A DNA stretch of 51,325 bases from Oscillospiraceae bacterium (GCA_031260685.1 JAISLB010000058.1:1-51325); one strand, 5' to 3'. Numbered from the stretch's first letter, positions 601 through 50,060 are shown. The notes: generated by a model not told the origin, from the letters alone. Numbers and translations are program-made.

Positions 601-1275
601 ATGAACCCTGATATACAATACTTTGCGTACCTTTGGCAAAACCGCCGCGCTCCGAGCGTTGGTCACAGCGCGGAGCTTTGGGACAAGCGCGCAGCCGAAT
701 GGATAGCGGATCTCGAGGCAAACGGCGAGGACGCTAAGGGCGTAGCACGCGAACGCGCTATTTCGGCGTTTCTCCGCTCTAAGGGTTTACTCACCGCCGA
801 GCAGCGCGTTATCGACATCGGCTGCGGACCTGCGACGTTTACTCTCGACTTTGCCGCTACCTGTAAGGAAGCGATAGGTCTCGATTACAGCAGAACCTTT
901 ACGGAATACGGAGCCGCGCAAGCCGCTAAACTCGGGCGCACTAACGTAAGCTTCATAACTGCCGATTTCGAAGCTATCGACGTAAAGGCGGAGGAACTCG
1001 AACACGCCTTCGACCTTGTGTTTACGTCGATAACTCCCGCAGCGTCCAACTGGGACAAAATGCAAAAGGTTATGACGCTCTCACGCTCCTACGTATGTAA
1101 CGTAGCTGCGGTAGCGTCAAGCGACGGCAACCCGCGCTTCAGCGGAACGGGCTTTTACAGTTTATGGAACTTGCTGTGGCTCTCGGGCTATCTCCCGGAA
1201 ACGTTCTACTATACCGAACATAAAGGGCGCGGGAGCTACACCTACGGCGTAATACTATGGTCTGTTAACAGATGA
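601..1275 (+). CDS. class I SAM-dependent methyltransferase
   Basis: Motif I VIDIGCGPATFTLDFA, followed by acidic LDYS and FDLVFTS motifs typical of the Methyltransf_11/25 fold. Confidence 0.7.
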   Translation: MNPDIQYFAYLWQNRRAPSVGHSAELWDKRAAEWIADLEANGEDAKGVARERAISAFLRSKGLLTAEQRVIDIGCGPATFTLDFAATCKEAIGLDYSRTFTEYGAAQAAKLGRTNVSFITADFEAIDVKAEELEHAFDLVFTSITPAASNWDKMQKVMTLSRSYVCNVAAVASSDGNPRFSGTGFYSLWNLLWLSGYLPETFYYTEHKGRGSYTYGVILWSVNR

Positions 1276-1304
1276 CAGATAGTTAGATAGCAGATAGCAG
1301 ATAT
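1269..1304. repeat. tandem 7-8 nt array (CAGATAG type, about 5 units)
   Basis: cagatga cagatag ttagatag cagatag cagatat. The first unit contains the TGA stop of the methyltransferase. Confidence 0.85.
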
Positions 1305-1316
1305 GGTGGGTACGAT

Positions 1317-2300
1317 TTGAAGAAATACACGCTGATTGTGATAATTCTGGGCGTATTGGTGGCGCTCGGCATTGTGCTGTCGTTCGCTTTGGGACGTTAT
1401 CCGATTTCCGTGGAGGCACTTTTAGAGATAGTTCGCGGGGGCGGTACGTCCACTCAGCGCGCGTTATTTTTCAACGTACGTTTGCCGAGGATTTTGCTTG
1501 CCTGTATGGTGGGCTGCTCAATCTCCGCCGCGGGAGCCTCGTATCAGGGAGTTTTCCAAAACCCTATGGCAGCTCCGGACATTTTAGGCGCATCTTCGGG
1601 AGCCGCCGCCGGAGCTTCGGTCGCGATACTGCTGCAATTCTCCGGGCGCGGGATTATGCTCACAGCTTTTGCCGCAAGCTTAGCGACTATCGCACTCGTA
1701 ATGGCTGTCAGCAAAGCCGCACGCGGTAACAAGCTCCTCGGGATTATCCTCGCGGGCATTATGGTCTCGTCACTCGCAAACGCTGTTACCTCATTCGTTA
1801 AGATTGTCGCGGACCCGTATAACACCTTGCCGGAGATAACCTTTTGGCTGCTCGGAAGTTTGAAAAAGACTAACCTTTCGGACGTACCTCTCGCGGCGCT
1901 TCCTATGGCAATCGGGCTAATACCGCTCTTGCTCCTGCGCTGGCGGATAAATTTGCTCACGTTATCCGACAGCGAGGCGCGGACAATGGGCGTCAACGCC
2001 TCGAGAACCCGCGTAATCGTCATCGTCTGCGCAACTCTCATTACCGCCGCAAGCGTTGCCGTCAGCGGGCTAATCGGCTGGGTAGGCTTAGTTATCCCGC
2101 ACCTGACGCGCAGACTTGTCGGAAACAACTTCCGGCATCTCCTCCCCGCGAGTATGCTCGGCGGAGCCTTATTCCTGCTGCTCGTTGACGATATTTCGCG
2201 CAATCTGCTGGTAACTGAGATACCGCTCGGGATTTTGACCTCGGTGGTGGGCGCACCGTTCTTCCTCTGGCTGATAACCCGAAAGCGCGAGGAGTATTGA
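1317..2300 (+). CDS. iron-siderophore/cobalamin-type ABC transporter permease (FecCD/BtuC family)
   Basis: About 9 hydrophobic segments. FecCD-type motifs LLGASSGAAAGA, ITFWLLGSL and TSVVGAPFFLWL. TTG start with a GGTGGG RBS. Confidence 0.9.
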   Translation: MKKYTLIVIILGVLVALGIVLSFALGRYPISVEALLEIVRGGGTSTQRALFFNVRLPRILLACMVGCSISAAGASYQGVFQNPMAAPDILGASSGAAAGASVAILLQFSGRGIMLTAFAASLATIALVMAVSKAARGNKLLGIILAGIMVSSLANAVTSFVKIVADPYNTLPEITFWLLGSLKKTNLSDVPLAALPMAIGLIPLLLLRWRINLLTLSDSEARTMGVNASRTRVIVIVCATLITAASVAVSGLIGWVGLVIPHLTRRLVGNNFRHLLPASMLGGALFLLLVDDISRNLLVTEIPLGILTSVVGAPFFLWLITRKREEY

Positions 2301-2301
2301 G

Positions 2302-3039
2302 ATGATTATAGTCAAAAACCTCTCGTTTTCCTACGGCAAAGCGCAGGTACTGCGCAACGTGAGCTTCACGGCGGAGCGCGGAGAGCTGCTCGCGGTTCTC
2401 GGTCCCAACGGAGTGGGAAAAAGCACGCTGTTCCGCTGTATACTGGGACTCGCGAAGCCGCAATCGGGCGAAATATTCCTAGACGGCGAACGTGTCAGCT
2501 CAATCCGCCCGAACGACTTAGCGCATAAGCTTGCGTACGTACCGCAGTCCCACGCGCCTACGTTCAATTACAGCGTGTTCGATATGGCGCTGATGGGAAC
2601 CACGGCGCAGGTCGGCGGCTTGTCAAGCCCGGGAGCCGCGCAAATCAAGCTCGTGAACGAAGCTCTCGAACGTGTGGGAATTCTCGCGCTCAAGAACCGC
2701 GGCTACCTGGAAATAAGCGGCGGCGAACGTCAGCTGACGCTTATCGCGAGAGCCTTAGCTCAAAAGGCCGATACGCTAGTGCTCGACGAGCCTACGTCCA
2801 ATCTCGACTACGGCAATCAGCTGAAAGTCCTCGCACAGGCGAAAGAACTCGCAAACTCCGGCTATACCGTTATCCAAAGTACTCATAACCCCGACCAGGC
2901 GGCACTATTCGCGGATAGAGTACTCGCGCTCAAGGGCGGTACAGTTCGCGCACTCGGAAGCAGTGAAATACTCACCGATGAGCTAATCGGTGAGCTGTAC
3001 GATATAGACTTGTCCGCGCTGAAACTCTACCGGCGGTAA
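2302..3039 (+). CDS. ABC transporter ATP-binding protein (FecE/BtuD type)
   Basis: Walker A GPNGVGKST, signature SGGERQ, Walker B LVLDEPTS, H-loop STHN. Starts 1 nt after the permease stop. Confidence 0.9.
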   Translation: MIIVKNLSFSYGKAQVLRNVSFTAERGELLAVLGPNGVGKSTLFRCILGLAKPQSGEIFLDGERVSSIRPNDLAHKLAYVPQSHAPTFNYSVFDMALMGTTAQVGGLSSPGAAQIKLVNEALERVGILALKNRGYLEISGGERQLTLIARALAQKADTLVLDEPTSNLDYGNQLKVLAQAKELANSGYTVIQSTHNPDQAALFADRVLALKGGTVRALGSSEILTDELIGELYDIDLSALKLYRR

Positions 3040-3045
3040 ACGCGC

Positions 3046-3085
3046 CAACTAACCACTAACCACTAACCACTAACCACTGACAACT
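3046..3085. repeat. tandem heptamer array (AACCACT x4 plus degenerate flanks)
   Basis: caact aaccact aaccact aaccact aaccact gacaact, between convergent genes. The tgt stop (TAG, 3070-3072) and its last codons lie inside the array. Confidence 0.9.
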
Positions 3086-4185
3086 GTTCTAGCGTAGTAG
3101 TCGGCGGCGAATTCGTCAAAAGCGCCCGCCACTATCGCGCTTCTTATGTCCTCCGTGAGCCTGTTATAGTGCCGGAGATTGTGCAATACGGCAAAGCGCA
3201 GCCCGAGTATTTCTCCGCTCTTGAACAAATGCCGGATGTAGCTTCGGCTGTAACCGCCTTTACATACCGGACAGTCGCAGCCGGCGTCGAGAATTCGTCC
3301 GTCTGCCGCGTACTGTTCGTTTTTTATGTTCAGCACTCCCGATTGAGTGTAGAACTTACCGTGTCTGCCGTTCCGCGCGGGAAGTACGCAGTCGAACATA
3401 TCAACGCCGCGCCGTACCGCTTCGAGGATATTGTACGGGGTTCCGACGCCCATTAGGTAACGCGGTTTGTCAGACGGCATTGCGGGAACGATATAGTCAA
3501 GCGCGGCGTACATTTCCTCCGTGCTTTCCCCGACAGCTAAGCCGCCGATAGCATAGCCCGGAAGTCCGAGCGCGGCGATATCGCGCATATGTTTCAGGCG
3601 TATCTCGCGGTAGGTTCCGCCCTGATTGATTCCGAACAGCGCGGAAGCGGACTGCGAACATCCGAGTTCCTCAATACAGCGTTCCAGCCAGCGCGTAGTG
3701 CGCTCCGCCGATTCCTCCACGTATTTGTAATCCGCGGGAAGCGCTATACACTCGTCAAAAGCCATAATAATGTCGCTCCCGAGCGCGATTTGGGTTTGCA
3801 CGGAAACTTCGGGAGTAAGCGTTATACGTTTACCGTCGATATGAGAGTTGAAAGCAACTCCGCTCTCAGTGATTTTGCGTAAGCGTCCGAGCGAATAGAC
3901 CTGAAACCCTCCGCTGTCCGTGAGAATCGGCTTATTCCAGCGCATAAAGCCGTGCAAAGCTCCCGCCGTGCGAATCGTTTCCGCTCCCGGACGCAGGAAC
4001 AGATGATAGGTGTTCGCAAGCGCAATCTGGCAGCCGATTTCGCCGAGGTCACGCGCAGACAAGCCGCCCTTGATAGCCGCTTGCGTAGCGACATTCATAA
4101 AGCAGGGGGTTTGCACTTCGCCGTGAGCCGTGGTAATTGTCCCGCGCCTGGCATCTCCGGAGCTGTGAGTACGATTGAAGGTCAT
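3070..4185 (-). CDS. tgt: tRNA-guanine transglycosylase (queuine tRNA-ribosyltransferase)
   Basis: TPCFMNVATQAAIKG, LTDSGGFQV, YAIGGLAVGE and zinc motif CDCPVC...H. I place the start at ATG 4185, which forms an ATGA overlap with the upstream stop; the track start is 4203. Confidence 0.9.
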   Translation of the reverse strand: MTFNRTHSSGDARRGTITTAHGEVQTPCFMNVATQAAIKGGLSARDLGEIGCQIALANTYHLFLRPGAETIRTAGALHGFMRWNKPILTDSGGFQVYSLGRLRKITESGVAFNSHIDGKRITLTPEVSVQTQIALGSDIIMAFDECIALPADYKYVEESAERTTRWLERCIEELGCSQSASALFGINQGGTYREIRLKHMRDIAALGLPGYAIGGLAVGESTEEMYAALDYIVPAMPSDKPRYLMGVGTPYNILEAVRRGVDMFDCVLPARNGRHGKFYTQSGVLNIKNEQYAADGRILDAGCDCPVCKGGYSRSYIRHLFKSGEILGLRFAVLHNLRHYNRLTEDIRSAIVAGAFDEFAADYYARTVVSG

Positions 4186-5030: not shown

Positions 5031-5355
5031 AGTTGTCGGTTGCCTCCCGGAGCGCCGTCAAAACGTAATCCGCGAGCTTCTCCGGTGTAATGTTGTAGCA
5101 GATAGCGGTCAGCCCGAGCTTTACGTCGGTATTGTAGATGACCGAAACTCCGGTACTAGCGTCCGTAACAGAGAATGTAGCCGCGCCGGAAGGCTCTACG
5201 TAGCCTTTAATGTGACCGATGAGCGCACCGTAATCCTCAACTTCACGCGCCAGCGCCGCAATAGACTCCGCAAATCCGCGTACTTTCGCCGCCGAGAAAT
5301 CAGTTGATACTACCGAAGCTCCGTTATGCGTATGCGCGTGCATATCAATTTTCAT
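4981..5355 (-). CDS. small His-rich protein, likely the detached C-terminal domain of a COG0523/CobW GTPase
   Basis: MKIDMHAHTHNG N-terminus followed by a beta-rich IGHIKGYVE...FSVTD...LTAICYNI region. ATG 5355 overlaps the TGA of the GTPase gene (ATGA). Confidence 0.45.
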   Translation of the reverse strand: MKIDMHAHTHNGASVVSTDFSAAKVRGFAESIAALAREVEDYGALIGHIKGYVEPSGAATFSVTDASTGVSVIYNTDVKLGLTAICYNITPEKLADYVLTALREATDNYALEAELCSEEHTETI

Positions 5356-5936: not shown

Positions 5937-5953
5937 TCTAACCACCTCCGCTG

Positions 5954-6025
5954 CTGACCACTGACCACTGACCACTGACCACTGTATCACTGTATCACTG
6001 TATCACTGTATCACTGTTCACTGAC
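5954..6025. repeat. compound tandem array (CTGACCA x4, CTGTATCA x4, ctgttca ctgac)
   Basis: Read directly from the sequence. It lies between the acyl-CoA synthetase stop (6011-6013, inside the array) and the COG0523 start. Confidence 0.95.
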
Positions 6026-8629: not shown

Positions 8630-8646
8630 TGTTATCCTCCTTTTAA

Positions 8647-8680
8647 CTGACCACTAATCACTGACCACTGCTATCTGTCC
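8647..8680. repeat. tandem heptamer array (CTGACCA / CTAATCA / CTGCTAT)
   Basis: ctgacca ctaatca ctgacca ctgctat ctgtcc. It contains the ROK gene stop (8654-8656) and its last 8 codons (GQIAVVSD). Confidence 0.9.
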
Positions 8681-9665: not shown

Positions 9666-10049
9666 ATGAACTTTGAAGAATTCAAAGAGCGGGCTACCGA
9701 AACCGCGGAGTTTGTAGCGGGTAAAACCGTTCAATTCGCGAAATATGCCGGCGAGAAGGTCGGTACAGCTGCCAAAGTCGCAAAGCTCAACGCGGAGATA
9801 CTTGCCGAGAAGGACAACCTCCGCAAATCGTATCAGCGTATCGGCAAGCTCTACGTCGAGCTGTACGCCGCTACTCCGCACGATGATATCGCAGCCGAGC
9901 TTGACATCGTACACTCGGCGCAGGATAAAATTGACGAGCTGAAAAACAAAATCGACGAGATTAAAACAGACGCGGGCTGGAACGGCGGTTCCGACGCGGA
10001 TTTTGAAGAAGACTTTGACGCTGAATTCAACGAAGGGGACGAGCAGTAA
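9666..10049 (+). CDS. hypothetical coiled-coil protein with acidic C-terminus
   Basis: ATG preceded by an AAAGGCGGA RBS. Helical, heptad-like composition. Codirectional with and 3 nt upstream of rplI. Confidence 0.5.
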   Translation: MNFEEFKERATETAEFVAGKTVQFAKYAGEKVGTAAKVAKLNAEILAEKDNLRKSYQRIGKLYVELYAATPHDDIAAELDIVHSAQDKIDELKNKIDEIKTDAGWNGGSDADFEEDFDAEFNEGDEQ

Positions 10050-10052
10050 GTT

Positions 10053-11833: not shown

Positions 11834-11854
11834 TAGTTAGCAGATATCAGAGAC
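11834..11854. repeat. short degenerate heptamer array (TAGTTAG CAGATAT CAGAGAC)
   Basis: Three units starting 4 nt after the dnaB stop. Same unit family as 1269..1304 and 24199..24234. Confidence 0.5.
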
Positions 11855-11898
11855 GTAAGTTTGGACAGAAGCCGGGTGCGTTATTTGTTGCGCGGCTC

Positions 11899-11927
11899 TT
11901 GACAAATCGCCGTATATTTGTTATAAT
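11899..11927 (+). promoter_or_regulatory. consensus sigma-A promoter (TTGACA-17-TATAAT)
   Basis: TTGACA at 11899-11904 and TATAAT at 11922-11927, about 24 nt upstream of the His-rich ORF. Likely the promoter of the Ni-accessory/CFeSP operon. Confidence 0.7.
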
Positions 11928-13221: not shown

Positions 13222-13249
13222 ATATCCGATATCCGATATTTGATAACTG
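13222..13249. repeat. tandem heptamer array (ATATCCG ATATCCG ATATTTG ATAACTG)
   Basis: Read directly from the sequence. Lies in the 70-nt cooC-acsD spacer. Confidence 0.8.
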
Positions 13250-15652: not shown

Positions 15653-15765
15653 AACTAACAATGAATAGTGTATAGTGGGAATCTAAAGAGATAGAGCGGT
15701 GCAATAAGACAGCGAAATCTGAATAAACCTATTATTCACTATTCATTATTAACCATTAACTGATT
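15653..15765. repeat. inverted AT-rich heptamer arrays flanking a 66-nt spacer
   Basis: taacaATGAATAGTG (15656-15670) pairs with CACTATTCATtatta (15737-15751) at 14 of 15 positions. The right arm reads tattcac tattcat tattaac cattaac tgattaa. Confidence 0.7.
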
Positions 15766-15782
15766 AAATAGGAGAACAACTT

Positions 15783-20255: not shown

Positions 20256-20965
20256 TGGCGCTTTACGTAATTGGCGACACTCATTTGTCGCTCGGGGCGG
20301 AGAAGCCGATGGACGTTTTCGGCGGTAACTGGGAGGGCTACACGGAGAAGCTGCGCCGCGGCTTCTCCGTGCTCGGCGAGGGCGATACAATTGTCTTAGC
20401 GGGCGATATAAGCTGGGGAATGAGGCTCACGGAGGCATTGCCGGACTTCCGCTTTTTATCGGAATATCCGGGGCGTAAGATACTCGTAAAAGGTAATCAC
20501 GACTATTGGTGGGACACTCTCAGCAAGATGAACGCGTTTTTTGCGGAGAGCGGCTTAGACGATTTTGAGATTCTGCACAATAACTGCTTCCTGTATAAGG
20601 ATATTGCGCTTTGCGGAACCCGCGGCTGGTTCTACGAAGAGGATAGAGGTTCAAACGCGGAGCTTACTCACGACAGGAGGATTTTTCTGCGCGAATTGGG
20701 ACGTTTGGAAGCCTCGCTCAAAGCAGCCGAAAGTATCAATCCGCGGGAGATTTACGCTTTTCTGCATTATCCTCCCGTATTCCGCGACTTTTACTGCGCG
20801 GAGATAATCGACCTTTTCGCTAAGTACGGCGTTAGCCGCTGTTTCTACGGACACATACACGGAGAGACGCAGCGCTGGGCGTTTGAGGGAACCTACGGAG
20901 CTGTGACCTATTCGCTGATTGCCGCCGACAGACTGGGCTTCGTCCCGCGCCTGATTGAACGCTGA
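20255..20965 (+). CDS. metallophosphoesterase family protein
   Basis: GDTHLS, LAGDISW, GNHDYWW and HYPP...GHIHG motifs. TAATG overlap with the kinase stop. Confidence 0.75.
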   Translation: MALYVIGDTHLSLGAEKPMDVFGGNWEGYTEKLRRGFSVLGEGDTIVLAGDISWGMRLTEALPDFRFLSEYPGRKILVKGNHDYWWDTLSKMNAFFAESGLDDFEILHNNCFLYKDIALCGTRGWFYEEDRGSNAELTHDRRIFLRELGRLEASLKAAESINPREIYAFLHYPPVFRDFYCAEIIDLFAKYGVSRCFYGHIHGETQRWAFEGTYGAVTYSLIAADRLGFVPRLIER

Positions 20966-21094
20966 CCGCAGTGGTCAGTGAGCAGTGAGCAGTGGTCAGT
21001 GAGCAGTGGTCAGTAGGAACGTCCCAATGTCCCAACGTCCATCTGACCACTAATCACTGACCACTGACCACTAACCACTGCTCTCTGACCACTG
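20962..21094. repeat. inverted heptamer arrays (GTGGTCA/GTGAGCA x7 and the complement x7) around an AGGAACG...CGTCCA core
   Basis: The left arm, about 20971-21019, is imperfectly complementary unit-by-unit to the right arm, 21042-21094. The centre reads cgtcccaa tgtcccaa cgtcca. Confidence 0.9.
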
Positions 21095-21111
21095 CCGCGC
21101 ATATTTAGCGT

Positions 21112-21140
21112 TTGACAATCTTTGCAAATTATGTTATACT
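21112..21140 (+). promoter_or_regulatory. sigma-A promoter (TTGACA-17-TATACT)
   Basis: TTGACA at 21112-21117 and TATACT at 21135-21140, upstream of the MinD-like gene. Confidence 0.7.
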
Positions 21141-22311: not shown

Positions 22312-24195
22312 ATGATAGACCTTGCCGTACGCGGCGTTACAAAAGCTTTCGAAAAGGACAAAAATATCCTCGACGGCATAAGCTTCGATATAAACACAGG
22401 CGAGAGGGCGGGCTTACTCGGACGCAACGGCGCGGGTAAAACCACCCTGTTCCGCGTTATTACCGGCGAATACGAATGTGACAGCGGAGACGCGCTTCTC
22501 GCAAACGGGAAGCGTACGGGTATCCTTGCGCAAATTCCCGTCTATCCGCCGGGCTTTACAGTTGAGGACGTACTGCTCAAAGCGCAGTCGCGTCAGCTCG
22601 ACCTGATACGAACCCTCGGGGAACTCTCCGGGAAGCTTGATAACCCCGCTGCTCTCCGCGAATACGACGAACTAAGCGTTCAGCTCGAAGCCGCGGGAGG
22701 CTACGAACTGGACTACGTACGTGACAAAACCGCCAACGGCTTGAACATTCCCGCCAAAATGCGGAAGTCACTCTTTGCGGAGCTTTCGGGCGGCGAAAAA
22801 ACTCGCGTCAACCTCGCGCGTTTGCTGCTTGAGGGCGTTGACCTCCTGCTGCTTGACGAACCTACTAACCATCTTGATATGAAGAGTATCGCTTGGCTCG
22901 AAGAGTACCTCGTCGGCGCAAAGCTCTCCGCGCTGATAATTTCGCACGACCGCTACTTTCTCGACGCCGTACTGACCCGCGTTATCGAGTTGGAAGCCGG
23001 CAAAGTCGAACTATACAGCGGAAACTACACATCGTACGTAGCTGAAAAGCAACGCCGCGAGGAGCTTGCCGCTAAACAATTCGCGCAAATGGACAAGGAA
23101 GCGTCAAGGCTCCGCGAAACCGCTCTGATGTTCCGCCAATATGGTACGGAGATTGCAATCAAGCGCGCCAAAAATATGGAGCGCAGAATCGAGCGGCTTC
23201 GCGCTTCGGCTCCTCCGCCGGCTAAGAAAGAGGGCAAGCTCAAGGCAAGCTTCACCGCGAGGGAATTTCGCGGTGACGAGCTTATGATTGCGCAAAACCT
23301 CTCAAAAGCTTACGGCGAGCGCACGCTTTTCTCCGGAGTATCGCTCGAGATAAGAGCTGGAGAGCGAATCGCGCTTCTCGGCGATAACGGAACCGGCAAG
23401 TCTACGCTGATAAATATTCTCGCAAACCTCGATAAGCCGGACAGCGGTACCGTGCGCTTTTCTCCGTCTGCCAAAACCGCTTATCTTGAGCAGCACGTCA
23501 CTTTCGCGAATGTTAACCGCAGTCTGTACGATACCGTAATCTACGAGACTAACTGCCCTCCGCAGGAAGCGCGGAACCGGCTCGGACTATACCACTTCCG
23601 CGGCGAGGACGTATTCAAGCCTATCTCGGTACTTTCGGGCGGCGAATTATCATGCTTACGGCTTTGCATCCTTATGCGCGGCGACATCAATCTGCTGATG
23701 CTCGACGAACCTACGAATCATCTCGATATCTTAGCCCGCGAATGGCTTGAGGACGCGCTCGACGAATACGACGAGGCGATACTTTTCGTCTCGCACGACA
23801 GATACTTTATCGAGCGTTTTGCCACACGCTTCTGGACGCTTGAGAACGGCGTAATAAACGATTTCAGCGGGAACTACAAACAGTATATAGCGCGTCCCGC
23901 AACTGCGGCGGCTGTTCCGCCGCGTTCCGGCAACTTCGCGCCGACTTTGAGCGATGTTCCGAAATCGGAAGCGAAGCACAAAGGCGGACGCTCCAAGCCG
24001 CCCGACAAATCTCGCCAGCTGGCAAAGCTCGAAGCCGAAATCGCAAAGCAAGAGACCGCGCTGAACCAAATCAACGCGGAAATCGAGGAAAACGCCAGCA
24101 ACTACGAAGCTCTCACCGAACTATACGCAAAAAAAGAAGCCGCAGACTTCGCTCTGAACGAGCTCTACGAAAATTTCGCGGAACTGGAATACTGA
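22312..24195 (+). CDS. ABC-F family ATPase (two ABC domains plus C-terminal coiled coil)
   Basis: Two Walker A sites (GRNGAGKTT, GDNGTGKST), two signatures (LSGGEKTR, LSGGELSC) and two Walker B sites (LLLDEPTNHLD, LMLDEPTNHLD). Start taken at ATG 22312 (MIDLAVRG). Confidence 0.9.
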   Translation: MIDLAVRGVTKAFEKDKNILDGISFDINTGERAGLLGRNGAGKTTLFRVITGEYECDSGDALLANGKRTGILAQIPVYPPGFTVEDVLLKAQSRQLDLIRTLGELSGKLDNPAALREYDELSVQLEAAGGYELDYVRDKTANGLNIPAKMRKSLFAELSGGEKTRVNLARLLLEGVDLLLLDEPTNHLDMKSIAWLEEYLVGAKLSALIISHDRYFLDAVLTRVIELEAGKVELYSGNYTSYVAEKQRREELAAKQFAQMDKEASRLRETALMFRQYGTEIAIKRAKNMERRIERLRASAPPPAKKEGKLKASFTAREFRGDELMIAQNLSKAYGERTLFSGVSLEIRAGERIALLGDNGTGKSTLINILANLDKPDSGTVRFSPSAKTAYLEQHVTFANVNRSLYDTVIYETNCPPQEARNRLGLYHFRGEDVFKPISVLSGGELSCLRLCILMRGDINLLMLDEPTNHLDILAREWLEDALDEYDEAILFVSHDRYFIERFATRFWTLENGVINDFSGNYKQYIARPATAAAVPPRSGNFAPTLSDVPKSEAKHKGGRSKPPDKSRQLAKLEAEIAKQETALNQINAEIEENASNYEALTELYAKKEAADFALNELYENFAELEY

Positions 24196-24198
24196 GGT

Positions 24199-24310
24199 CA
24201 GATAGCAGTTAGCAGATATTAGATAGCAGATAGCGTGGGTTAGGACGCAGCTAAACGTCCAAACCCACGCTATCTGCTATCTGCTATCTGCTATCTGCTA
24301 TCTGCTAACT
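24199..24310. repeat. near-perfect long palindrome built from GATAGCA / TGCTATC heptamer arrays around a GTGGGTT-A-GGACG ... CGTCC-A-AACCCAC core
   Basis: The left arm 24199-24234 pairs with the right arm 24269-24310 with 3 mismatches, plus a 12-bp core stem and an 8-nt loop (cagctaaa). Lies between convergent genes. The purA stop (24298-24300) is inside the right arm. Confidence 0.95.
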
Positions 24311-25503
24311 GAAACAACGTCGTCTCTTGCCGGTCCTGTTCCTATGTAGCGCACTTTTACGCCTACCTGCTTCTCTATCAGCTCGATGTAGGCTTTCGCA
24401 TTTGCGGGGAGTTTGTCATAATCCTTGATGCCTTTGGTGGATTCTGTCCAGCCGGGCATCATTTTATATATAGGGAAACTGCTGCCTTTAACGTAGCTCG
24501 TGCAGACTTTGAGCTGCTCCACGCCGTCGAGTTTGTCAAGCTTTGTGAGTATCAGCTCCGTCAAACCGTTGACTTTATGGGCATAGCGCAGAACTTCAAG
24601 GTCGAGCCAACCTAAACGGCGCGAACGTCCCGTACGCGCTCCGAATTCGTCATCGGGCTGCGAACCGTCGCCGCGCAGCGGTGCCGCTTCGTCATCGGTC
24701 ATCTCCGTTGGGAAAGGTCCGTCGCCCACATCGCTGCTGAAAGCTTTCGCAACTCCCGCAACGCGTGTGATTTTGCTTACCGGAAAACCTCCGCTCACTG
24801 CCGCGTACGCAGCGACAGGATTGGACGAAGTAACATACGGGTACGTACCGAGGTCAATGTCCTTCATAACCCCGAGCTGACCCTCGAACAATACGTGCTT
24901 GCCGCTGTCAATATAGTCGTTGACAAACTCAACCGGGTCAACGAGCAGCGGTACAAGCCGCTCCTGCCAGTAACGCAGCTTTTCGTCCGGAACATCGTAA
25001 TTGAGGTTCGCAAGCCCCGCGGATTTCGCCTGACTGATGTACTCTTTTAGTACGTCAAGGTCACGCAAATCCTCCGCTCTCGGGTTCTTGCGAAGCATTT
25101 TATAGGCATAAGCCTGACCAATCCCGCGCTTCGTTGTGCCTATACCGCTCGCTTTCTCGATAGCTACGTCAAGCTCAACGTGGTAAGGCAAAATGAGGTG
25201 CGCCTTATCCGAGAGGTAGAGCTTTGATACGTCTACGCCTAACTCTTTGAGCATATCAATCTCGCTTATCAGCACGTCGGGGTTAACGACCGTTCCGGTG
25301 CCGACGAGATTTGACGCGCCCGGAGTGAAAATTCCGCAGGGTATCAGGTGCATTTTGAACACTCCGTAGCTGTTAATTACGGTGTGACCGGCGTTGTCGC
25401 CTCCCTGATAGCGTACTACCAAGTCAGCGTCAGCCGCGAGGTAATCGACCATTTTGCCTTTGCCTTCATCGCCGAATTGCGCGCCTACTACGACAGTTAC
25501 CAT
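24298..25503 (-). CDS. purA: adenylosuccinate synthase
   Basis: VVVGAQFGDEGKGKMVDYLA P-loop, GDNAGHTV, GTTKRGIG and TGRSRRLGWLD. Start taken at ATG 25503; the track TTG is at 25521. Confidence 0.9.
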   Translation of the reverse strand: MVTVVVGAQFGDEGKGKMVDYLAADADLVVRYQGGDNAGHTVINSYGVFKMHLIPCGIFTPGASNLVGTGTVVNPDVLISEIDMLKELGVDVSKLYLSDKAHLILPYHVELDVAIEKASGIGTTKRGIGQAYAYKMLRKNPRAEDLRDLDVLKEYISQAKSAGLANLNYDVPDEKLRYWQERLVPLLVDPVEFVNDYIDSGKHVLFEGQLGVMKDIDLGTYPYVTSSNPVAAYAAVSGGFPVSKITRVAGVAKAFSSDVGDGPFPTEMTDDEAAPLRGDGSQPDDEFGARTGRSRRLGWLDLEVLRYAHKVNGLTELILTKLDKLDGVEQLKVCTSYVKGSSFPIYKMMPGWTESTKGIKDYDKLPANAKAYIELIEKQVGVKVRYIGTGPARDDVVSVSR

Positions 25504-25538
25504 TGTATAATTCCCTTTCAATGTGAATATAATATTAT

Positions 25539-25587
25539 CAGTAATCAGTGGTCAGTGGTCAGTGGTCAGTGGTCAGCGGTCAGTTGC
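25539..25587. repeat. tandem heptamer array (CAGTGGT type, 7 units)
   Basis: cagtaat cagtggt x4 cagcggt cagttgc, in the divergent purA / yaaL-like intergenic region. Confidence 0.95.
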
Positions 25588-31281: not shown

Positions 31282-31321
31282 GCTCCTCCGGAAACAGTCT
31301 TTCCGGAGGAGCTTTTTCTTT
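31282..31321 (+). terminator. rho-independent terminator
   Basis: Perfect 13-bp stem GCTCCTCCGGAAA / TTTCCGGAGGAGC, 5-nt loop, then TTTTTCTTT. Confidence 0.85.
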
Positions 31322-33548: not shown

Positions 33549-34796
33549 ATGGGAAATAACGGCAATAACCGGAGCAGCAATGAATCAGACATTCTCGAAC
33601 TAAAAGAGTTTTTGCTTGACAGCGAGTCTTTACTGAGCGATTTGGAGGAGCAAATCGGCAACAAAGTCAACATTTTTGACATTCTAAGCGTCAGCCGAAC
33701 CGAAATCAGACACAGCAATATACTCGCTTGGCTGCTCAATCCCTTTGAAAACCACGGCTTATCAAGCAAGTTCACCGATGGCTTACTGGCGCTGATAGCG
33801 GGTTTTGACGAAACGTCGCACGAAGAAAGCATTAAGCTAATCCTCGCGGACGGAGCAAGCTTCAGCGTTTACCGCGAATGGAACCACATTGACCTTCTCC
33901 TTGTTTCCGAGAAAGATAAGCTCGCAGTCTGCATTGAGAACAAAATTGATTCAGGTGAAAGCGATAACCAGCTTAACACATACCGAAAGAAAGTGAAAGA
34001 GGAGTTTGCAGACTCCGAATATAGTCATTACTTTTTGTATCTGACCTTATTCGGCGAAGAACCATCTGACAGCGATAACTGGACTCCGATAAGCTATTCG
34101 GACGATATAAGCGGGCTTATTAAATCCATCGCAGCTAAGGAGTCCCTGTCAAGCGAGGTTTCGCTGATAATCAACCACTACTTATCTACAATAGGGAGTT
34201 TAACTATGGAAAACAGCGATAAAATCATAGAGTTATGCAGAAAAATTGACGCAAAGCACAGGCACGCAATTGATTTAATCGTAGGAAACCGCTACAATCC
34301 GCTTAGCGAAGTTGCCGAAACTATAAATGATTGGGTCGTTAAGTGGGCGAGTGAGGAACGATTAGTCAATCTACCGAGAGCAACCACTTTTTACAAGGCT
34401 TTTACAACAAATGGATTGACTGAAATTTTACCGGATGTAATAGAAAATAAGCCGCCCTGCATCTATTTTATTGGTATTGAATCCTCTCGGATTTTTCTTA
34501 CTATGGAGTTGCAAGGCATCGGCGTAAACGATACAAATTTAGACGCGGCTGAAATTGTTTCAATTGCCGCGTCAGACGGGAAGAAACCGTTAAAGAAGAA
34601 AGACTGGGGATATAAAAGGATTGTTAGCTGGGACATCATTAAAAAGGGGAAAAATGAAGATGTAGAAGCTTTCGTCGATAAATTCAACAAAGGAATAAGC
34701 GGTATTGAAAAGAAGCTCTATCAGATAATTACGTCGGATATACCCGCGATTGAAGCTAAGTGCAAGAAACAACTTGCCGAAGCGGAGTTGTTGTAA
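33549..34796 (+). CDS. PD-(D/E)XK nuclease family protein (PDDEXK_4-like)
   Basis: EIRHSNILAWLLNPFENHGL N-terminal signature, then D...E.K core HIDLLLVSEKDKLAVCIENKIDSGESDNQL. Visibly AT-richer than its flanks. Confidence 0.65.
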   Translation: MGNNGNNRSSNESDILELKEFLLDSESLLSDLEEQIGNKVNIFDILSVSRTEIRHSNILAWLLNPFENHGLSSKFTDGLLALIAGFDETSHEESIKLILADGASFSVYREWNHIDLLLVSEKDKLAVCIENKIDSGESDNQLNTYRKKVKEEFADSEYSHYFLYLTLFGEEPSDSDNWTPISYSDDISGLIKSIAAKESLSSEVSLIINHYLSTIGSLTMENSDKIIELCRKIDAKHRHAIDLIVGNRYNPLSEVAETINDWVVKWASEERLVNLPRATTFYKAFTTNGLTEILPDVIENKPPCIYFIGIESSRIFLTMELQGIGVNDTNLDAAEIVSIAASDGKKPLKKKDWGYKRIVSWDIIKKGKNEDVEAFVDKFNKGISGIEKKLYQIITSDIPAIEAKCKKQLAEAELL

Positions 34797-45600: not shown

Positions 45601-45656
45601 TGTTTGCTCCTCCGTCACGTATTGCGCATACTATCTGCTTTTTCGGATTTGATGTA

Positions 45657-46625
45657 CTACCGCGCCGCGGTGTAACTGCCATCCGATAAATACGGCTGTC
45701 CGTTGATTGATACAAAGCGTATAGCGTTTGGTATAATCTTAATATCGAGCGATTGTTCGTAGAATATTTCGCCGTCCAGCGCGACATAAAGCGGACGCTC
45801 CGACTTAACAGTTATACTATGCGTCAGCTTATGCGAAAATGATTCCGGATGTTTGTGATATTTGCCGTGTACAAAATCGCTAATCTTAGTCACTATTTGC
45901 AGGAGTGAGAGCTTTTTAGCCAGCAGCACGTCAAGTACGCCGTCGCTGGGGCAAGCGTCGGGGCAAGGGGAAAACGTATCTCCGTAGAAACCACCGTTGA
46001 ATATGCTAATCGCGCTGTACGAGTCGCTTAGGTTCTCGCCGTCGGAGACAACTTCGTAATCCTGATAGCGCGATTCGTCTCTCAAGGCGGAGAAAATTGC
46101 CATAGCGGAATACGCGGGCGAGATAAACTTAGAGAATTTAGAGCGTGACATATGACCGCTTAACCCATAGAGCGCGGCAATCGCTCTGCTCTCGATACCT
46201 ATCGTACAATGGTTCAGCGCGTAGGCGCGTCCGGTGGAAATAACGTCCGTAGGAATAGCGGGACTCAAAAGCTGCAGCTGTATATCGCGGAAAAGCTCTT
46301 TGACGCCGGGACCGAAAGACCTCAGAAAATCGTTCGAAGAGCCGTAGGGTATGTTCGCAAGTTCCGCGTTTTCAAGCCCTATTATCCCGTTAAGACAATC
46401 GAAAAGTATTCCGTCGCCTCCCACCGCGTATACGCGAACAATCTCCGACGAATGTTTCATAACGTATGAGCGTACTACCGCAACCGCGTCTCTCGGGCGG
46501 CGCGAGAAGTAAACGCGGTAGCTCCCGCTCCCCTCCGGCAGATAGTCCTCGATATCAACGAAGAACTGTTGGAAGTCCTGCCGGTTTGTAAGCGATATAG
46601 GATTAACGACGAAATAATGTACCAT
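45657..46625 (-). CDS. diacylglycerol/lipid kinase family protein (YegS/BmrU-like)
   Basis: DAGK_cat motifs VYAVGGDGILFDCLNG and IPYGSSNDFLR. Confidence 0.7.
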   Translation of the reverse strand: MVHYFVVNPISLTNRQDFQQFFVDIEDYLPEGSGSYRVYFSRRPRDAVAVVRSYVMKHSSEIVRVYAVGGDGILFDCLNGIIGLENAELANIPYGSSNDFLRSFGPGVKELFRDIQLQLLSPAIPTDVISTGRAYALNHCTIGIESRAIAALYGLSGHMSRSKFSKFISPAYSAMAIFSALRDESRYQDYEVVSDGENLSDSYSAISIFNGGFYGDTFSPCPDACPSDGVLDVLLAKKLSLLQIVTKISDFVHGKYHKHPESFSHKLTHSITVKSERPLYVALDGEIFYEQSLDIKIIPNAIRFVSINGQPYLSDGSYTAAR

Positions 46626-46636
46626 AATTCCCCAAC

Positions 46637-46663
46637 TATAGCCATTCGGCTATGTTTTTGCCG
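46637..46663. repeat. 27-nt motif, copy A (TATAGCCATTCGGCTATGTTTTTGCCG)
   Basis: Identical to 48222..48248. Contains the 6-4-6 palindrome ATAGCC-attc-GGCTAT. Lies 11 nt upstream of the minus-strand start at 46625. Confidence 0.9.
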
Positions 46664-46675
46664 CAGTTGAGCGGT

Positions 46676-47755
46676 CTAATGTGCGTCCTCTGCTACCGTC
46701 AGCTTCGCGAATTCGCTTTCCATCGTGCGGAACACTTCAACTAACTGCGGGTCAAAGTGGCTCCCGCTTGACGCGAAGATTATTTCAGCCGCTTGCTCAC
46801 GCGGCATTGCTTCTTTATAGGAGCGAACGTGCGTCAACGCGTCGTATACATCGGCGATAGCGAGAATTCTCCCCAGCAGCGGAATCTTTTCGCCCATTAA
46901 GCCCCTGGGGTAGCCGCTTCCGTCCCATTTCTCGTGGTGCGCTCCGGCGAAAGTTTTTGCGTATTCTAAGAATTCCTGCTTGCCGTTTTTCGCGAGTTTG
47001 ACTTCCATATGCGAGATTATCTCCTCGCCCATTGCCGCGTGAGTTTTCATTATTTCAAACTCCTGCGGAGTGAGCTTTCCCCTTTTGTTGAGTATGAGGT
47101 CGCTGATACGGATTTTGCCTACGTCGTGCAGTTGAGCCGAGGGGAGCAGCCACTCCATATTCCAGCTTTTGCGCTCCTCCGGAAATACGTTCCCCGCTAT
47201 CATACCGTCAATAAGAAGCGAGAGGTAGCCCTGAGTACGCTCCACGTGTCCGCCCGTTGTGAAATCGCGCGATTCGATAAGGTTTGACACCACCGAGAGC
47301 AAACCGCTCTGGAGCGCGAGAACCTGACTTGTTTTCTCGCGAACCATAATGTCGAGGTCGTGGTGAGAAGCCGCGTTGAATAAGTGCGTCTCAATCCTGC
47401 GCAGAAGCGTGGGGATAGAGAACGGCTTAGAAATGAAGTCCACCGCGCCCAGTTTGAAACCTTCAAGCTCCGAGGCTTCGTCGCTTCTCGCCGTGAGAAA
47501 GATTACCGGAATATGGTTATACTGCGGTTCCGAGCGAAGCCTGCGCAGAACGGTATAGCCGTCCTCCTCGGGCATTTCAACGTCCAAAAGGATTAAGTCC
47601 GGAGAGCTTCGGGTCAGTTGGTTGAACATCATAGCTCCGGAGATAAGGGTAACAACTTTGTAGTCTTTGTTGAGCGCCTGTTTAGCAACTTGCAGGTTGG
47701 TTTCATTGTCGTCAACAATAAAGACGGTTTTGCGATTAGGCTGCACGGCTAACAC
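46676..47755 (-). CDS. response regulator with HD-GYP c-di-GMP phosphodiesterase domain
   Basis: REC VFIVDDNETN...LLDVEMPEEDG, and HD-GYP motifs HDVGK and HHEKWDGSGYPRGL. GTG start; an alternative GTG lies at 47746. Confidence 0.85.
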   Translation of the reverse strand: MLAVQPNRKTVFIVDDNETNLQVAKQALNKDYKVVTLISGAMMFNQLTRSSPDLILLDVEMPEEDGYTVLRRLRSEPQYNHIPVIFLTARSDEASELEGFKLGAVDFISKPFSIPTLLRRIETHLFNAASHHDLDIMVREKTSQVLALQSGLLSVVSNLIESRDFTTGGHVERTQGYLSLLIDGMIAGNVFPEERKSWNMEWLLPSAQLHDVGKIRISDLILNKRGKLTPQEFEIMKTHAAMGEEIISHMEVKLAKNGKQEFLEYAKTFAGAHHEKWDGSGYPRGLMGEKIPLLGRILAIADVYDALTHVRSYKEAMPREQAAEIIFASSGSHFDPQLVEVFRTMESEFAKLTVAEDAH

Positions 47756-47830
47756 TTCCTTCTATTGACAGTTTACAAGGGTTAAATACAGAAACCGGGG
47801 AAGACGCTGACGGCTTGACCGAGCGGTAAA

Positions 47831-48202
47831 TCACAAGCTCCAAAACTCCGGCGCGAACGTTTCCTCAAATATCCCCTCGGAAACTTTCCGCAACGCCGCG
47901 CAGTATTCCTCGTATTTATCAATCAGCGCAAGCGCAAATTCGGTTAGGCTGGAGCTGCCTCCGTGAGAACCGCCCTGCCGCCTGTTGATTAGCTTTCGCC
48001 CGAGAGATTCCTCGAGGTTGTCGACAATTTTCCAACCTTTTGAGTATGATAAACCCATTTCAGCACAGGCTACTTTGATTGAGCGGTGCTTGTCGGTGAG
48101 TTTCAAAAGTTTAAGCGTTCCCGGTCCGAAGAAGCCTTGTTCGCCGCGTTTCAGCCATATCTTCATCTTCGGCACCACGGTCAGATTGTCTTGTGGGTTC
48201 AT
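47831..48202 (-). CDS. ModE N-terminal-like winged-helix transcriptional regulator
   Basis: GPGTLKLLKLTDKHRSIKVACAEMGLSYSKGWKIV...RRQGGSHGGSSSLT matches the ModE/LysR-type HTH N-domain. No molybdate-binding domains. Confidence 0.7.
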   Translation of the reverse strand: MNPQDNLTVVPKMKIWLKRGEQGFFGPGTLKLLKLTDKHRSIKVACAEMGLSYSKGWKIVDNLEESLGRKLINRRQGGSHGGSSSLTEFALALIDKYEEYCAALRKVSEGIFEETFAPEFWSL

Positions 48203-48221
48203 AAAACCTTCCCCCGTTTAT

Positions 48222-48248
48222 TATAGCCATTCGGCTATGTTTTTGCCG
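48222..48248. repeat. 27-nt motif, copy B
   Basis: Identical to 46637..46663. Lies 19 nt upstream of the minus-strand start at 48202. Confidence 0.9.
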
Positions 48249-48277
48249 TAACAATTGTCAAACGTAAGAGCTGTAAA

Positions 48278-49561
48278 TCAGTTATACACAAATTGCCAGT
48301 TGTAGAATATTATCGTATCGCCAGCTTGCAGCCCGAGTTCTATTAGCCTGTCGTATACTCCCACGCGGCGCAGCGTCGTATCGAAGTACGCGCGTCCCTC
48401 CGTGTCGTCGAGATTAACCCTATCGAGTAAGCGGTCGAGCCAAGGTCCCGTAACTGTGTATTCTCCGTCCGCTCCGGAGTAGCTGAGTTCGGCTGCCGTT
48501 TCGCTGAAATCGTCCGCGGGAACGAAATCAGCCTCAAAGTAAGGCGCGGCGGGAATTTGCGATAGTTGATGCGCGGCCAACCGCAGAAGTTCGCGAACGT
48601 TATATCCCGTCGCACCGCTGATTTGCACTAAGGCAACTATCGGAAAACCCGATTTCCCGGCGTAGTCTGTCAGTTCGCTGAAAAGTTCCGTATCGCCCTC
48701 CGGCAATAGGTCAGATTTATTCAGCGCGACTATCATCGGCTTTTTTGCAAGCTCCGTATCGTAGTTTTTCAGCTCACCGCAGATTGTATCGAAGTTAGCG
48801 CGCATAACGTCCGGTTCGTCCGCGGCAATGACGTGTATCAACAGTCTGCAGCGTTCGATATGACGCAGGAAGCCGTGTCCCAAACCCGCTCCCTCGGAAG
48901 CGTTCTCTATAAGCCCCGGAACATCCGCCAGTACGAACGATACACCGTCGGATATGTTCGCAACCCCGAGATTCGGATGCAGCGTGGTGAACGGATAATC
49001 CGCAATCTTTGGATTCGCTCGTGTGGAAGCCGCAAGCAGGGTAGATTTCCCGGCGTTCGGAAGCCCTATTAAGCCCACGTCCGCGAGAAGTTTCAGCTCA
49101 AGCGTAACCTCGCGGGATTGTCCGAAACCTCCTGGTTTAGCAAAGCGCGGAGCCTGACGGGTTGCCGTAGCAAATCTTTTGTTGCCGCGCCCTCCGCGCC
49201 CTCCCCTCGCGAGTACGAACGGCAAGCCGTCCGAGAGGTCGTGTATTACCCCGCCGGTGGCTTTGTCCTTGACGACCGTACCAACAGGTACGCGGAGCGT
49301 CAAGTTCGCGCCGTCCCTGCCGCTTTTTTGACGTCCGGAGCCATTTTCGCCCTTAGGAGCAGTATACACCCTTTTATAGCGAGAATCAACCAGTGTCGAG
49401 AGGTTATTATCGGGCAGGAGAATAACGCTCCCGCCCGAACCTCCGTCGCCTCCGTCCGGTCCGCCGGCGGGTACATATTTCTCGCGGTGGAATGAGACTG
49501 CTCCGTCCCCCCCATTGCCCGCCGTGACAGTTATGGTAGTGCGGTCGTAAAAGTTGTTCAA
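48278..49561 (-). CDS. obg: GTPase Obg/CgtA
   Basis: Glycine-rich Obg fold AGNGGDGAVSFHREKYVPAGGPDGGDGGSGG. G1 GLPNAGKST, G3 DVPG, G4 NKSD. TTG start with an AGAGGAAA RBS. Confidence 0.95.
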   Translation of the reverse strand: MNNFYDRTTITVTAGNGGDGAVSFHREKYVPAGGPDGGDGGSGGSVILLPDNNLSTLVDSRYKRVYTAPKGENGSGRQKSGRDGANLTLRVPVGTVVKDKATGGVIHDLSDGLPFVLARGGRGGRGNKRFATATRQAPRFAKPGGFGQSREVTLELKLLADVGLIGLPNAGKSTLLAASTRANPKIADYPFTTLHPNLGVANISDGVSFVLADVPGLIENASEGAGLGHGFLRHIERCRLLIHVIAADEPDVMRANFDTICGELKNYDTELAKKPMIVALNKSDLLPEGDTELFSELTDYAGKSGFPIVALVQISGATGYNVRELLRLAAHQLSQIPAAPYFEADFVPADDFSETAAELSYSGADGEYTVTGPWLDRLLDRVNLDDTEGRAYFDTTLRRVGVYDRLIELGLQAGDTIIFYNWQFVYN

Positions 49562-49577
49562 CGTGTTTCCTCTTGCA

Positions 49578-49640
49578 CAGTGGTCAGTGATTAGTGGTTA
49601 GTGGTTAGTGGTTAGTGGTTAGTGGTAAGTGGTCAGTGGC
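49578..49640. repeat. tandem heptamer array (CAGTGGT/TAGTGGT, 9 units)
   Basis: cagtggt cagtgat tagtggt x5 aagtggt cagtggc. Contains the stop (49633-49635) of the four-helix-bundle gene and abuts the obg RBS. Confidence 0.95.
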
Positions 49641-49992
49641 TTAATCTTCTGATAAGTGCTGTCAGCATTTTCCCTACTTCTTCAGACAAACTCATTGCTT
49701 CTGTAATATCTGTAGCGGAAAGATAACCGATTTCTATGCAAATCAATAACTGTGTCTGAATTTCTGCTTTTGAACCTCTTGCTATTGCCAGAAAATGAAT
49801 AAATTCTTTTGTCGATTCTCTAGCCTGACCTTCTGCAATATTTGAGGGAATTGAAACAACTGCTCTGCGCATCTGGTCTGACAGCGAAAACAATTCCTCT
49901 TTTGGTAATTTTTTTACTAGCAAATAAACTTCTTTAACCAGTTTCATCGCTTTTTGCCATACTATTAGGTCTCGGTAATGATTCACAACCAT
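49633..49992 (-). CDS. four-helix-bundle protein (23S rRNA intervening-sequence protein / Avd family, PF05635-TIGR02436 type)
   Basis: YRDLIVWQKAMKL...SIPSNIAEGQARESTKEFIHFLAIARGSKAEIQTQL is the family hallmark. ATG 49992 follows a GGAGGATGAT RBS. The track N-terminus is translated repeat. AT-rich relative to its flanks. Confidence 0.9.
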   Translation of the reverse strand: MVVNHYRDLIVWQKAMKLVKEVYLLVKKLPKEELFSLSDQMRRAVVSIPSNIAEGQARESTKEFIHFLAIARGSKAEIQTQLLICIEIGYLSATDITEAMSLSEEVGKMLTALIRRLSH

Positions 49993-50018
49993 ATCATCCT
50001 CCACCGTCCAACCCCGTT

Positions 50019-50060
50019 CTGACCACTGACCACTGACCACTGTATCACTGTTCACCTGAC
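50019..50060. repeat. compound tandem array (CTGACCA x3, CTGTATCA, ctgttcac ctgac)
   Basis: Same unit order as 5954..6025 but with fewer copies. Inverted relative to 49578..49640. Contains the stop (50045-50047) of the XDH-family gene. Confidence 0.95.

Follow-up and report, generated by a model that had tools for sequence, protein, structure and literature searches.

Tandem heptanucleotide arrays between the genes of an Oscillospiraceae bacterium are best explained, and probably, as the repeat arms of a horizontally spreading cassette system built around S23p genes. The arrays were analysed in a 51,325-nt stretch of its genome (GCA_031260685.1 JAISLB010000058.1:1-51325; hereafter the window), where 13 loci in 51 kb include one complete cassette (49574-50056), three "empty" stems and seven solo arrays. 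All arrays consist of one polar unit, YAG-N4 (CAGTGGT, TAGTGGT, CAGTGAT, CAGATAG), with YAG recurring every 7 nt along one strand and zero times on the other (5-12 per strong array, fewer in weak ones). The repeats are of a known kind, that of short tandemly repeated repetitive (STRR) sequences, long simple sequence repeats and S23p intervening sequences, in a new host and setting. Of all the results, the connection of heptamer arrays with S23p cassettes is the most valuable.

The complete cassette lies between a MoCoBD (molybdopterin-enzyme) gene and obg, not in a 23S rRNA helix. Its cargo (49633..49992, minus strand) encodes a 119-aa Avd-like four-helix-bundle protein of TIGR02436/PF05635, a family also named "23S rRNA intervening sequence protein" or S23p. 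The protein matches PF05635 with E = 1.8e-41 and TIGR02436 with 134 bits (cut-off 24), and its nearest solved structure is PDB 2GSC (E = 1.5e-22). To our knowledge, this very large family has two solved structures (2GSC and 2RLD) and no known role. The 5' arm (50019..50056) reads CAGGTGAA-CAGTGATA-CAGTGGT x3 on the minus (sense) strand and contains the stop codon of the MoCoBD gene. The 3' arm (49574..49640) reads CAGTGGT-CAGTGAT-TAGTGGT x5-AAGTGGT-CAGTGG on the plus strand, next to the obg start; on the sense (minus) strand it is the complementary form of the YAG units, and the last codon and stop of the cargo gene (CAC-TGA) are its first unit. The inverted arms (49577-49639 and 50019-50043) enclose the gene and, in the predicted fold of the whole element, close it in a ~35-bp stem that is paired in both the minimum free energy and the centroid structures. 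The window gave no rRNA match and no Rfam match.

The same bracket surrounds S23p genes in other phyla. The sample comprised 25 genes: the window copy, three in array-selected loci, 16 on plasmids that were chosen by tblastn alone, the three closest homologues (Gracilibacteraceae, Acidobacteriota and Synergistaceae) and two on viral contigs. In 19 of the 25, complementarity between the 5' and 3' flanks of the same gene exceeds the 95th percentile of 548 unrelated flank pairs; these bracketed genes come from Cyanobacteria, Planctomycetota, Balneolaceae, Azospirillum, Acidobacteriota, Synergistaceae, Firmicutes, and viral contigs. The 5' flanks are AG-rich (21/25) and the 3' flanks CT-rich (23/25). 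At the 16 loci from plasmids, the density of period-7 arrays within 150 nt of the gene is 15.7 times that in the remainder of these loci. Units vary by gene (TAGGGAG, TAGGGTG, CAGGTGA, CAGGGAA, CAGAAGG, CAGGAGT, TAGTACC and others), yet the two arms of each gene always match one another, which is the whole-unit equivalent of compensatory change in a helix. At one locus (L213) an insertion sequence (IS) element lies between the matching 5' arm and the gene.

Cassettes are wedged into operons in either orientation: between the beta and alpha genes of ribonucleotide reductase (RNR), between cas6 and cas4, between cas10 and cmr3, and after lpxI. On cyanobacterial plasmids they occur repeatedly in CRISPR-Cas and other operons (cas6-cas4 in L206 and L216, cas10-cmr3 in L215), and the RNR cassette (L204) is antisense to its operon. 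In three organisms a cassette sits inside the open reading frame (ORF) of a PglX/Eco57I-type BREX methyltransferase (L220:3-3992, L282:79-1617 and L283:3-2492). In these pglX copies neither arm interrupts the host frame, nor does any part of the S23p gene, whose own reading frame is a different one; stops in the +2 frame number 0 in the embedded copies vs 2-19 in most other copies. The L220 ORF also has a DUF559 domain.

Unit and protein subfamily go together across phyla. The window S23p protein is 63-78% identical to copies in other phyla, a range also obtained as 66-76%; PurA drops to 64% identity within the organism's own family. All close S23p homologues (63-78% identity, at least four independent contexts) have arms of the CAGTGGT/TAGTGGT type, and each ends with a last codon and stop (CAC-TGA or CAC-TAA) that is the first unit of the 3' arm. 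The median cosine of arm composition is 0.40 for protein pairs with at least 60% identity in independent contexts vs 0.16 for other pairs (p about 6e-6). If gene and arms move together by horizontal transfer, as these patterns suggest, the spread of CAGTGGT arrays across phyla would follow.

Arrays of this unit are themselves widespread. Exact (CAGTGGT)3 was found in at least 119 stretches in 596 Gb vs ~0.3 expected (estimated by us from 4^21). Among the hosts are Acidobacteriota, Planctomycetota, Chloroflexota, Verrucomicrobiota, Bacteroidales, Nostocales (with Nostoc, Anabaena and Calothrix genomes), Deltaproteobacteria and an Oscillospiraceae metagenome-assembled genome (MAG), and the array is also present on 58 predicted viral contigs. 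Because the unit recurs across phyla, a replication quirk of one lineage cannot account for its spread, which joint travel of gene and arms would.

At the site of the window cassette, both cargo and unit differ in a sister species. Contig L223 shares its gene order with the window downstream of obg. Its MoCoBD-obg spacer consists, in order, of a YAG arm (CAGTTAT/CAAATAT), ~290 nt of GC-rich palindromic non-coding DNA and a complementary arm; there is no trace of an S23p gene in this spacer. A bracket kept in place while cargo and unit differ is as expected under cassette exchange, which would proceed by recombination through the arms.

Several observations weigh against reading the arrays as arms of S23p cassettes. 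An S23p gene is present at 1 of the 13 window loci, and the window holds no cognate gene for the CAGATAG subfamily. Elsewhere, an S23p gene lies within 8 kb in 3 of the 119 array-selected genome loci and on 0 of the 58 viral contigs, so most arrays need no S23p gene in cis; these counts rule out S23p genes adjoining arrays in general. The link could also reflect cassettes inserting into pre-existing arrays. Among the sampled genes, L209 and L216 have direct, not inverted, arrays on both sides, L210 and L214 are among those with no clear bracket, and many come from STRR-rich Nostocales. The comparison of arms at 60% identity and above is built on non-independent pairs, and the global rank correlation between protein identity and arm composition is weak (rho = 0.12, p about 0.1); it was discarded as support, the relationship being clear only at 60% identity and above. 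Finally, a lone solo array is unable to make a stem.

An alternative is that the arrays are plain long simple sequence repeats, produced by replication slippage, near-neutral and accumulating in spacers, with S23p genes as unrelated passengers that landed or were retained there. In many prokaryotes, heptamers predominate among long simple sequence repeats (PMC4679880, summarising Mrazek 2007; PMC4692102), and the window arrays belong to that class, being 7-nt tandem repeats above chance at dispersed intergenic loci that are unstable between relatives. Their hypervariability is seen directly in an independent Logan assembly of the same organism (L001; SRR14710919), which has 4560 bp in common with the window. 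The two differ by 2 mismatches and 7 gap openings, all within 25545-25584, and are otherwise identical; the L001 contig terminates inside an array. In two sister-species contigs an array occupies the corresponding site upstream of purA, with units ATTTGAT/ATCTGAT rather than CTGACCA. One of these two contigs has an ordinary terminator at the position of the window's CAGATAG hairpin, and L223 carries arrays in spacers that are array-free in the window. Family-level relatives (66-72% Prs identity in a prs-based metagenome scan) are nearly all without arrays, and the single array-bearing one uses TAGGGGT/TAGTGGT, again YAG-N4. From the strain and sister comparisons, the arrays are mutational hot spots whose position is kept over short evolutionary range and gained or lost over long range, and the "slippage hotspot" of the initial annotation is thereby supported, with all strain differences over 4.5 kb in one array and with units and presence varying among sisters. 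GGGAATC repeats in Xanthomonas behave likewise (Rehm et al., PMC4692102).

This patchy carriage and the distance of the majority of arrays from any S23p gene make an origin as plain repeats possible, but we regard it as doubtful. It leaves unexplained why CAGTGGT recurs in more than 10 phyla, why arms are complementary for each gene yet differ between genes, why the order is constantly YAG arm to complement, and why the unit tracks the protein subfamily across phyla.

The host assignment rests on the nearest homologues of two proteins. PurA is 91% and 89% identical to its nearest relatives (next ~64%) and Obg 83% (next ~62%), in both cases from uncultured MAGs labelled Oscillospiraceae, in agreement with an earlier description of the genome as Clostridia-type. 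Exact-protein look-ups for prs and the window S23p protein gave no match. The window encodes components of the Wood-Ljungdahl pathway (CdhD-family proteins, RACo and a pterin-binding protein). Contigs with close S23p homologues are mostly 0.5-2 kb long, consistent with flanking arrays breaking short-read assemblies, and the S23p family is probably under-represented in MAGs.

Tandem Repeats Finder called period-7 arrays in the window at 1276, 3048, 5954, 8646, 13222, 15733, 20968, 21043, 24199, 24269, 25545, 49579 and 50019, and an 8-mer array of CACTGTAT at 5980 beside the one at 5954. By a strict score there are 8 period-7 arrays, vs a mean of 0.005 and a maximum of 1 in 200 Markov-1 simulations of the window; periods 4-6 and 8-12 gave 0 or 1 array each. 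In a spacer table drawn from a Pfam-checked gene map, every array lies within a spacer or reaches only the terminal codons of genes. About a dozen spacers between 26 and 49.5 kb are all without period-7 signal. The arrays listed in the initial annotation are thus real at all strong loci, lie outside conserved coding sequence and are absent from 26-49.5 kb, as it had stated. Two of its loci, 11834 and 15653, are weaker than the rest, with 2-3 degenerate units each that Tandem Repeats Finder did not call, although 15653 is one arm of an inverted pair (partner 15728). Within the array-free stretch, a PD-(D/E)XK nuclease gene (PDDEXK_4; 33549-34796) has a GC content at third codon positions of 0.49, clearly below its neighbours, and may be recently acquired.

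Seven loci are solo arrays. The array at 1269..1303 (plus strand; CAGATGA-CAGATAG-TTAGATAG-CAGATAG-CAGATA) holds the stop of a methyltransferase gene (1273-1275) and occupies the spacer as far as a FecCD permease gene. At 3046..3083 (minus strand), TAGTGGT x4 and CAGTGGT lie between a convergent ATP-binding cassette (ABC) ATPase gene and tgt, and encode the stop and final codons of tgt (..VVSG*). The array at 5951..6025 (minus strand) has CAGTGGT x4 followed by the 8-mer CAGTGATA x5 and spans from the stop of an acyl-CoA synthetase-like gene to 12 nt short of the Shine-Dalgarno sequence and TTG start of a cobW-like gene. A mixed array at 8646..8680 (minus strand; CAGATAG-CAGTGGT-CAGTGAT-TAGTGGT-CAGTT) encodes the C-terminus of a ROK kinase (..QIAVVSD*) and extends up to the prs ribosome-binding site. 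The weak, degenerate array at 11834..11856 (plus strand; TAGTTAG-CAGATAT-CAGAGAC) is directly 3' of the dnaB stop, with a consensus promoter downstream (11899-11927). A short array upstream of a CdhD-family gene (13222..13249) is listed on the minus strand, with units ATATCCG x2-ATATTTG-ATAACTG; its minus-strand YAG-type reading is CAGTTAT-CAAATAT-CGGATAT x2, with units similar to those of the sister species. The last, at 25535..25585 (plus strand; CAGTAAT-CAGTGGT x4-CAGCGGT), separates divergent purA and a 99-aa ORF.

Four loci, the cassette among them, are inverted pairs, and the YAG arm comes first in each; the pairs are predicted to give near-perfect duplex stems of 35-50 bp. The "empty" hairpin at 20966..21095 (plus strand) is placed 3' of a metallophosphoesterase stop and consists of a YAG arm (CAGTGGT/CAGTGAG x7), a 25-nt loop with AACGTCC motifs and a complementary arm; a promoter follows (21112-21140). 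Its predicted fold has -82.5 kcal/mol (z = -9.7). A second "empty" hairpin (24198..24312, plus strand) separates convergent ABC-F and purA genes, with the purA stop inside an arm; it has a CAGATAG-type arm, an inner mini-stem (GGGTTAGGACG..CGTCCAAACCC) and a CTATCTG x6 arm, and RNA prediction for 24190-24320 gave -83.0 and -83.5 kcal/mol on the two strands (z = -14.5 and -13.6). The weak pair at 15656..15767 (plus strand; arms 15656-15679 and 15728-15751, extending to 15767) sits between acsC-like and pterin-binding genes and is predicted to fold with -27.7 kcal/mol (z = -3.8). The paired arms previously noted at 20962 and 24199 are therefore true inverted repeats. A proposed function as transcript-end structure agrees with the four inverted pairs (predicted folding energies of -28 to -83 kcal/mol) and not with the other arrays. 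No terminator-like site (GC-rich hairpin and T tract) was found in the array spacers; the best such sites are in array-free spacers, for example 27415-27394 and 31282-31312 (GC hairpin and T).

The inner ends of paired arms have a junction motif in common, GGTTAGGACG ... CGTCCAAACC, at 24235-24268, 21015-21040 and 49996-50010 in the window, at L223:9650-9665 and 9935-9948, and at the 3' end of L121. The motif recurs in this lineage only and is itself an inverted pair, which suggests that a defined element core may lie within the heptamer arms. AACGTCC was considered as a marker of hairpin loops and rejected as unspecific: it is enriched (19 vs 7.9), yet mainly inside genes. Two spacers in the array-free region (46637-46654 and 48222-48239) contain identical terminator-like hairpins (TATAGCCATTCGGCTATG then TTTTTGCCG), a small dispersed repeat of another kind.

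The strict period-7 phase of YAG raises another explanation, in which an oligomeric regulator binds the arrays, as RNA or DNA, by reading NAG triplets at 7-nt spacing, or the arrays are phase-variable promoter elements. HutP reads UAG-N4-UAG-N4-UAG and TRAP reads spaced (G/U)AG triplets, and the TAGTGGT and CAGATAG arrays fit (UAG-N4)n exactly. Upstream of purA (25526-25562, minus strand), array units (CTGACC) were flagged as -35-like boxes, 17-18 nt from TATATT/GATAAT, and the array concerned is the one at which L001 departs from the window; local effects of the purA-proximal array on expression are possible. As a general account, however, regulation is improbable. The neighbouring genes are unrelated housekeeping genes with no common theme, no candidate regulator was found in the window, and HutP is confined to Firmicutes while the arrays span phyla. 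A rule of sense-strand polarity also failed across phyla, where arrays between co-directional genes are YAG-sense in 21 cases and antisense in 27, with no general bias. An apparent pattern of YAG near stops and its complement near starts is possibly biased by ORF-based gene calls; Rehm et al. report a matching one for GGGAATC repeats, which lie on the coding strand when within 50 bp of a stop and on the non-coding strand when upstream of a start (PMC4692102).

The initial annotation had instead proposed that the arrays cap gene ends as three-frame translational stop pads. Stops lie inside or a few nt from arrays for the methyltransferase, tgt, acyl-CoA synthetase-like, ROK, metallophosphoesterase, purA, four-helix-bundle and MoCoBD genes, which bears out the association described for these eight, and likewise for ABC-F and dnaB; at least 10 genes thus finish in this way. 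Array-encoded C-termini also include those of PurA (..SVSR*) and the MoCoBD protein (..SGEQ*). The accompanying claims about strand did not hold. One strand was said to present stops in every frame and its complement none, but both strands have stops in all three frames in the arrays at 3046, 5951, 8646 and 49574. Incoming genes were said always to meet the stop-rich orientation, but those at CAGTGGT-family arrays face the one in which the pure unit has no stops, and the variants TAGTGGT and CAGTGAT supply them. Nor are the units separate families with opposite stop content: the array at 8646 combines CAGATAG with CAGTGGT units in a single phase and orientation, that of the one YAG-N4 unit. 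Arrays are found upstream of starts and between divergent genes as well (25535, 13222, 15728), and sister species have ordinary stops and terminators at the corresponding gene ends. An array that overruns a gene end inevitably provides the next in-frame stop, which is why genes end within arrays. The both-strand stop content contradicts the stop-pad function, and we consider it very improbable.

An assembly artefact or a system of repetitive extragenic palindromic (REP) doublets (REPINs) with REP-associated tyrosine transposases (RAYTs) is hardly credible: contigs do tend to break at arrays (the L001 end; the short S23p contigs), but independent assemblies from other samples and sources have arrays at the same positions, the units lack the palindromic form of REPs, and no RAYT, IS200-type TnpA or other transposase was found among the window ORFs.

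Comparison with published systems places the arrays among several relatives. Cyanobacteria have been known to carry tandem heptamer repeats since 1990, and later finds extend to Xanthomonas, Beggiatoaceae and many other bacteria. The arrays resemble the STRRs of heterocystous cyanobacteria in their tandem 7-nt units, many intergenic loci and variable copy number, and "STRR-like" was a fair description. They are not STRRs in the strict sense, since the host is labelled Oscillospiraceae and the units are CAGTGGT and CAGATAG, which differ from the classical STRR1-3 units, although CAGTGGT occurs in Nostocales. A link to S23p cassettes was not found described for STRRs in the literature searched, and searches on array sequence, heptamer repeats and gene family returned nothing linking arrays to S23p in general. 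Published examples of heptamer simple sequence repeats come from Xanthomonas and Nostoc (PMC4692102) as well as from Beggiatoaceae, Bacteroidetes and cyanobacteria (PMC4679880). The suggestion that such arrays are new to spore-forming Firmicutes therefore stands in part: no description for Clostridia was found in the literature searches, but heptamers that behave alike are published elsewhere.

The GGGAATC/GGGGAYT repeats of Xanthomonas and Nostoc are likewise intergenic, often in inverted pairs, and occur between the same gene pairs in sister species with varying length and sequence (PMC4692102). They are G-rich and are read as G-quadruplex formers, whereas the window units cannot form quadruplexes. 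XCC0516, which encodes the S23p protein of PDB 2GSC, has a GGGAATC array lying across its start codon (Rehm et al., supplementary table); the gene family is not commented on there (PMC4692102). The TAACTGA repeats (MacGregor 2015, PMC4679880) are also heptamers near starts, and their scattered occurrence among phyla suggests horizontal transfer. Their rotated reverse complement is CAGTTAT, the YAG-N4 unit seen in the sister species. They differ in being read as sites of a translational regulator, with inverted pairs unstressed and no S23p link noted (PMC4679880).

Closest to the complete cassette are the S23p intervening sequences of Coxiella and Leptospira, in which a PF05635 ORF lies inside a stem of terminal inverted repeats with tandem heptamers. 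The Coxiella 23S rRNA intervening sequence encodes S23p, its termini make a 28-bp stem, and its 5' region has 2-3 tandem GACAGAT heptamers, the number depending on the strain; RNase III cuts the stem at the first repeat (Warrier et al. 2016, PMC4990558). Ralph and McClelland had proposed that intervening sequences are mobile elements (cited in PMC4990558). GACAGAT rotates to CAGATGA, a unit present in the window array at 1269. In contrast to these elements, the window cassette is outside rRNA and others are in cas, RNR, lpx and pglX operons, the array arms are longer, and arrays are also found with no gene. RNase III excision is demonstrated only for Coxiella; the window stems are predicted, near-perfect duplexes of 35-50 bp.

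REPs and REPINs with their RAYTs (Bertels and Rainey 2011, PMC3116915) offer a parallel in organisation: inverted repeats flank the gene in a few copies, many other copies sit in spacers with no gene, and gene and repeat are cognate. The arrays differ in being tandem non-palindromic heptamers rather than imperfect palindromes of 20-40 nt, and the partner here is a small four-helix-bundle protein with no known catalytic activity or transposition mechanism. The earlier idea of footprints of a REP/RAYT-like system thus holds in spirit, with a TIGR02436/PF05635 gene in place of the RAYT or transposase that the window lacks. The Avd proteins of diversity-generating retroelements have a homologous four-helix-bundle fold. 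The window protein, however, scores 40 bits against NF033474 (the Avd of these retroelements; cut-off 80), and neither a reverse transcriptase among the window genes nor a template or variable repeat near the cargo was found. A related protein, XCC0516, is described as a homopentamer (PMC4990558).

If the arrays are arms of S23p cassettes, they would grow, shrink and switch units by slipped-strand mispairing and would persist where they are tolerated, in spacers and terminal codons. The complete form would be an S23p gene with a YAG array 5' and a complementary array 3', the transcript of which would fold into a long double-stranded stem. Stems of this kind may be RNase III processing sites that let the element sit in operons. 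Empty stems and solo arrays would be cassette derivatives or landing pads, exchanged by recombination between arms, and the stop codons and array-encoded protein tails would be by-products.

A broader version of this model can be put forward only tentatively, and we think it rather unlikely as a whole: that STRR-type arrays at large are non-autonomous arms or landing pads of mobile S23p (TIGR02436) cassettes. Each pentameric subfamily would recognise its own YAG-N4 array, and the protein would promote array spread or maintenance as RAYTs do for REPINs, with RNase III excising the element from any transcript, whether rRNA, operon mRNAs or coding genes such as pglX. Recognition of the array by a pentamer is proposed because five subunits at 7 nt each approximate a typical array length.

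For the genomes that carry them, heptamer arrays break short-read assemblies and create array-encoded protein tails, and since they change between strains they affect annotation and could serve as strain markers. The connection of the arrays to S23p, if real, would offer an origin for a repeat class that has been unexplained since 1990, and both questions, that of the repeats and that of the role of S23p, would become open to experiment.

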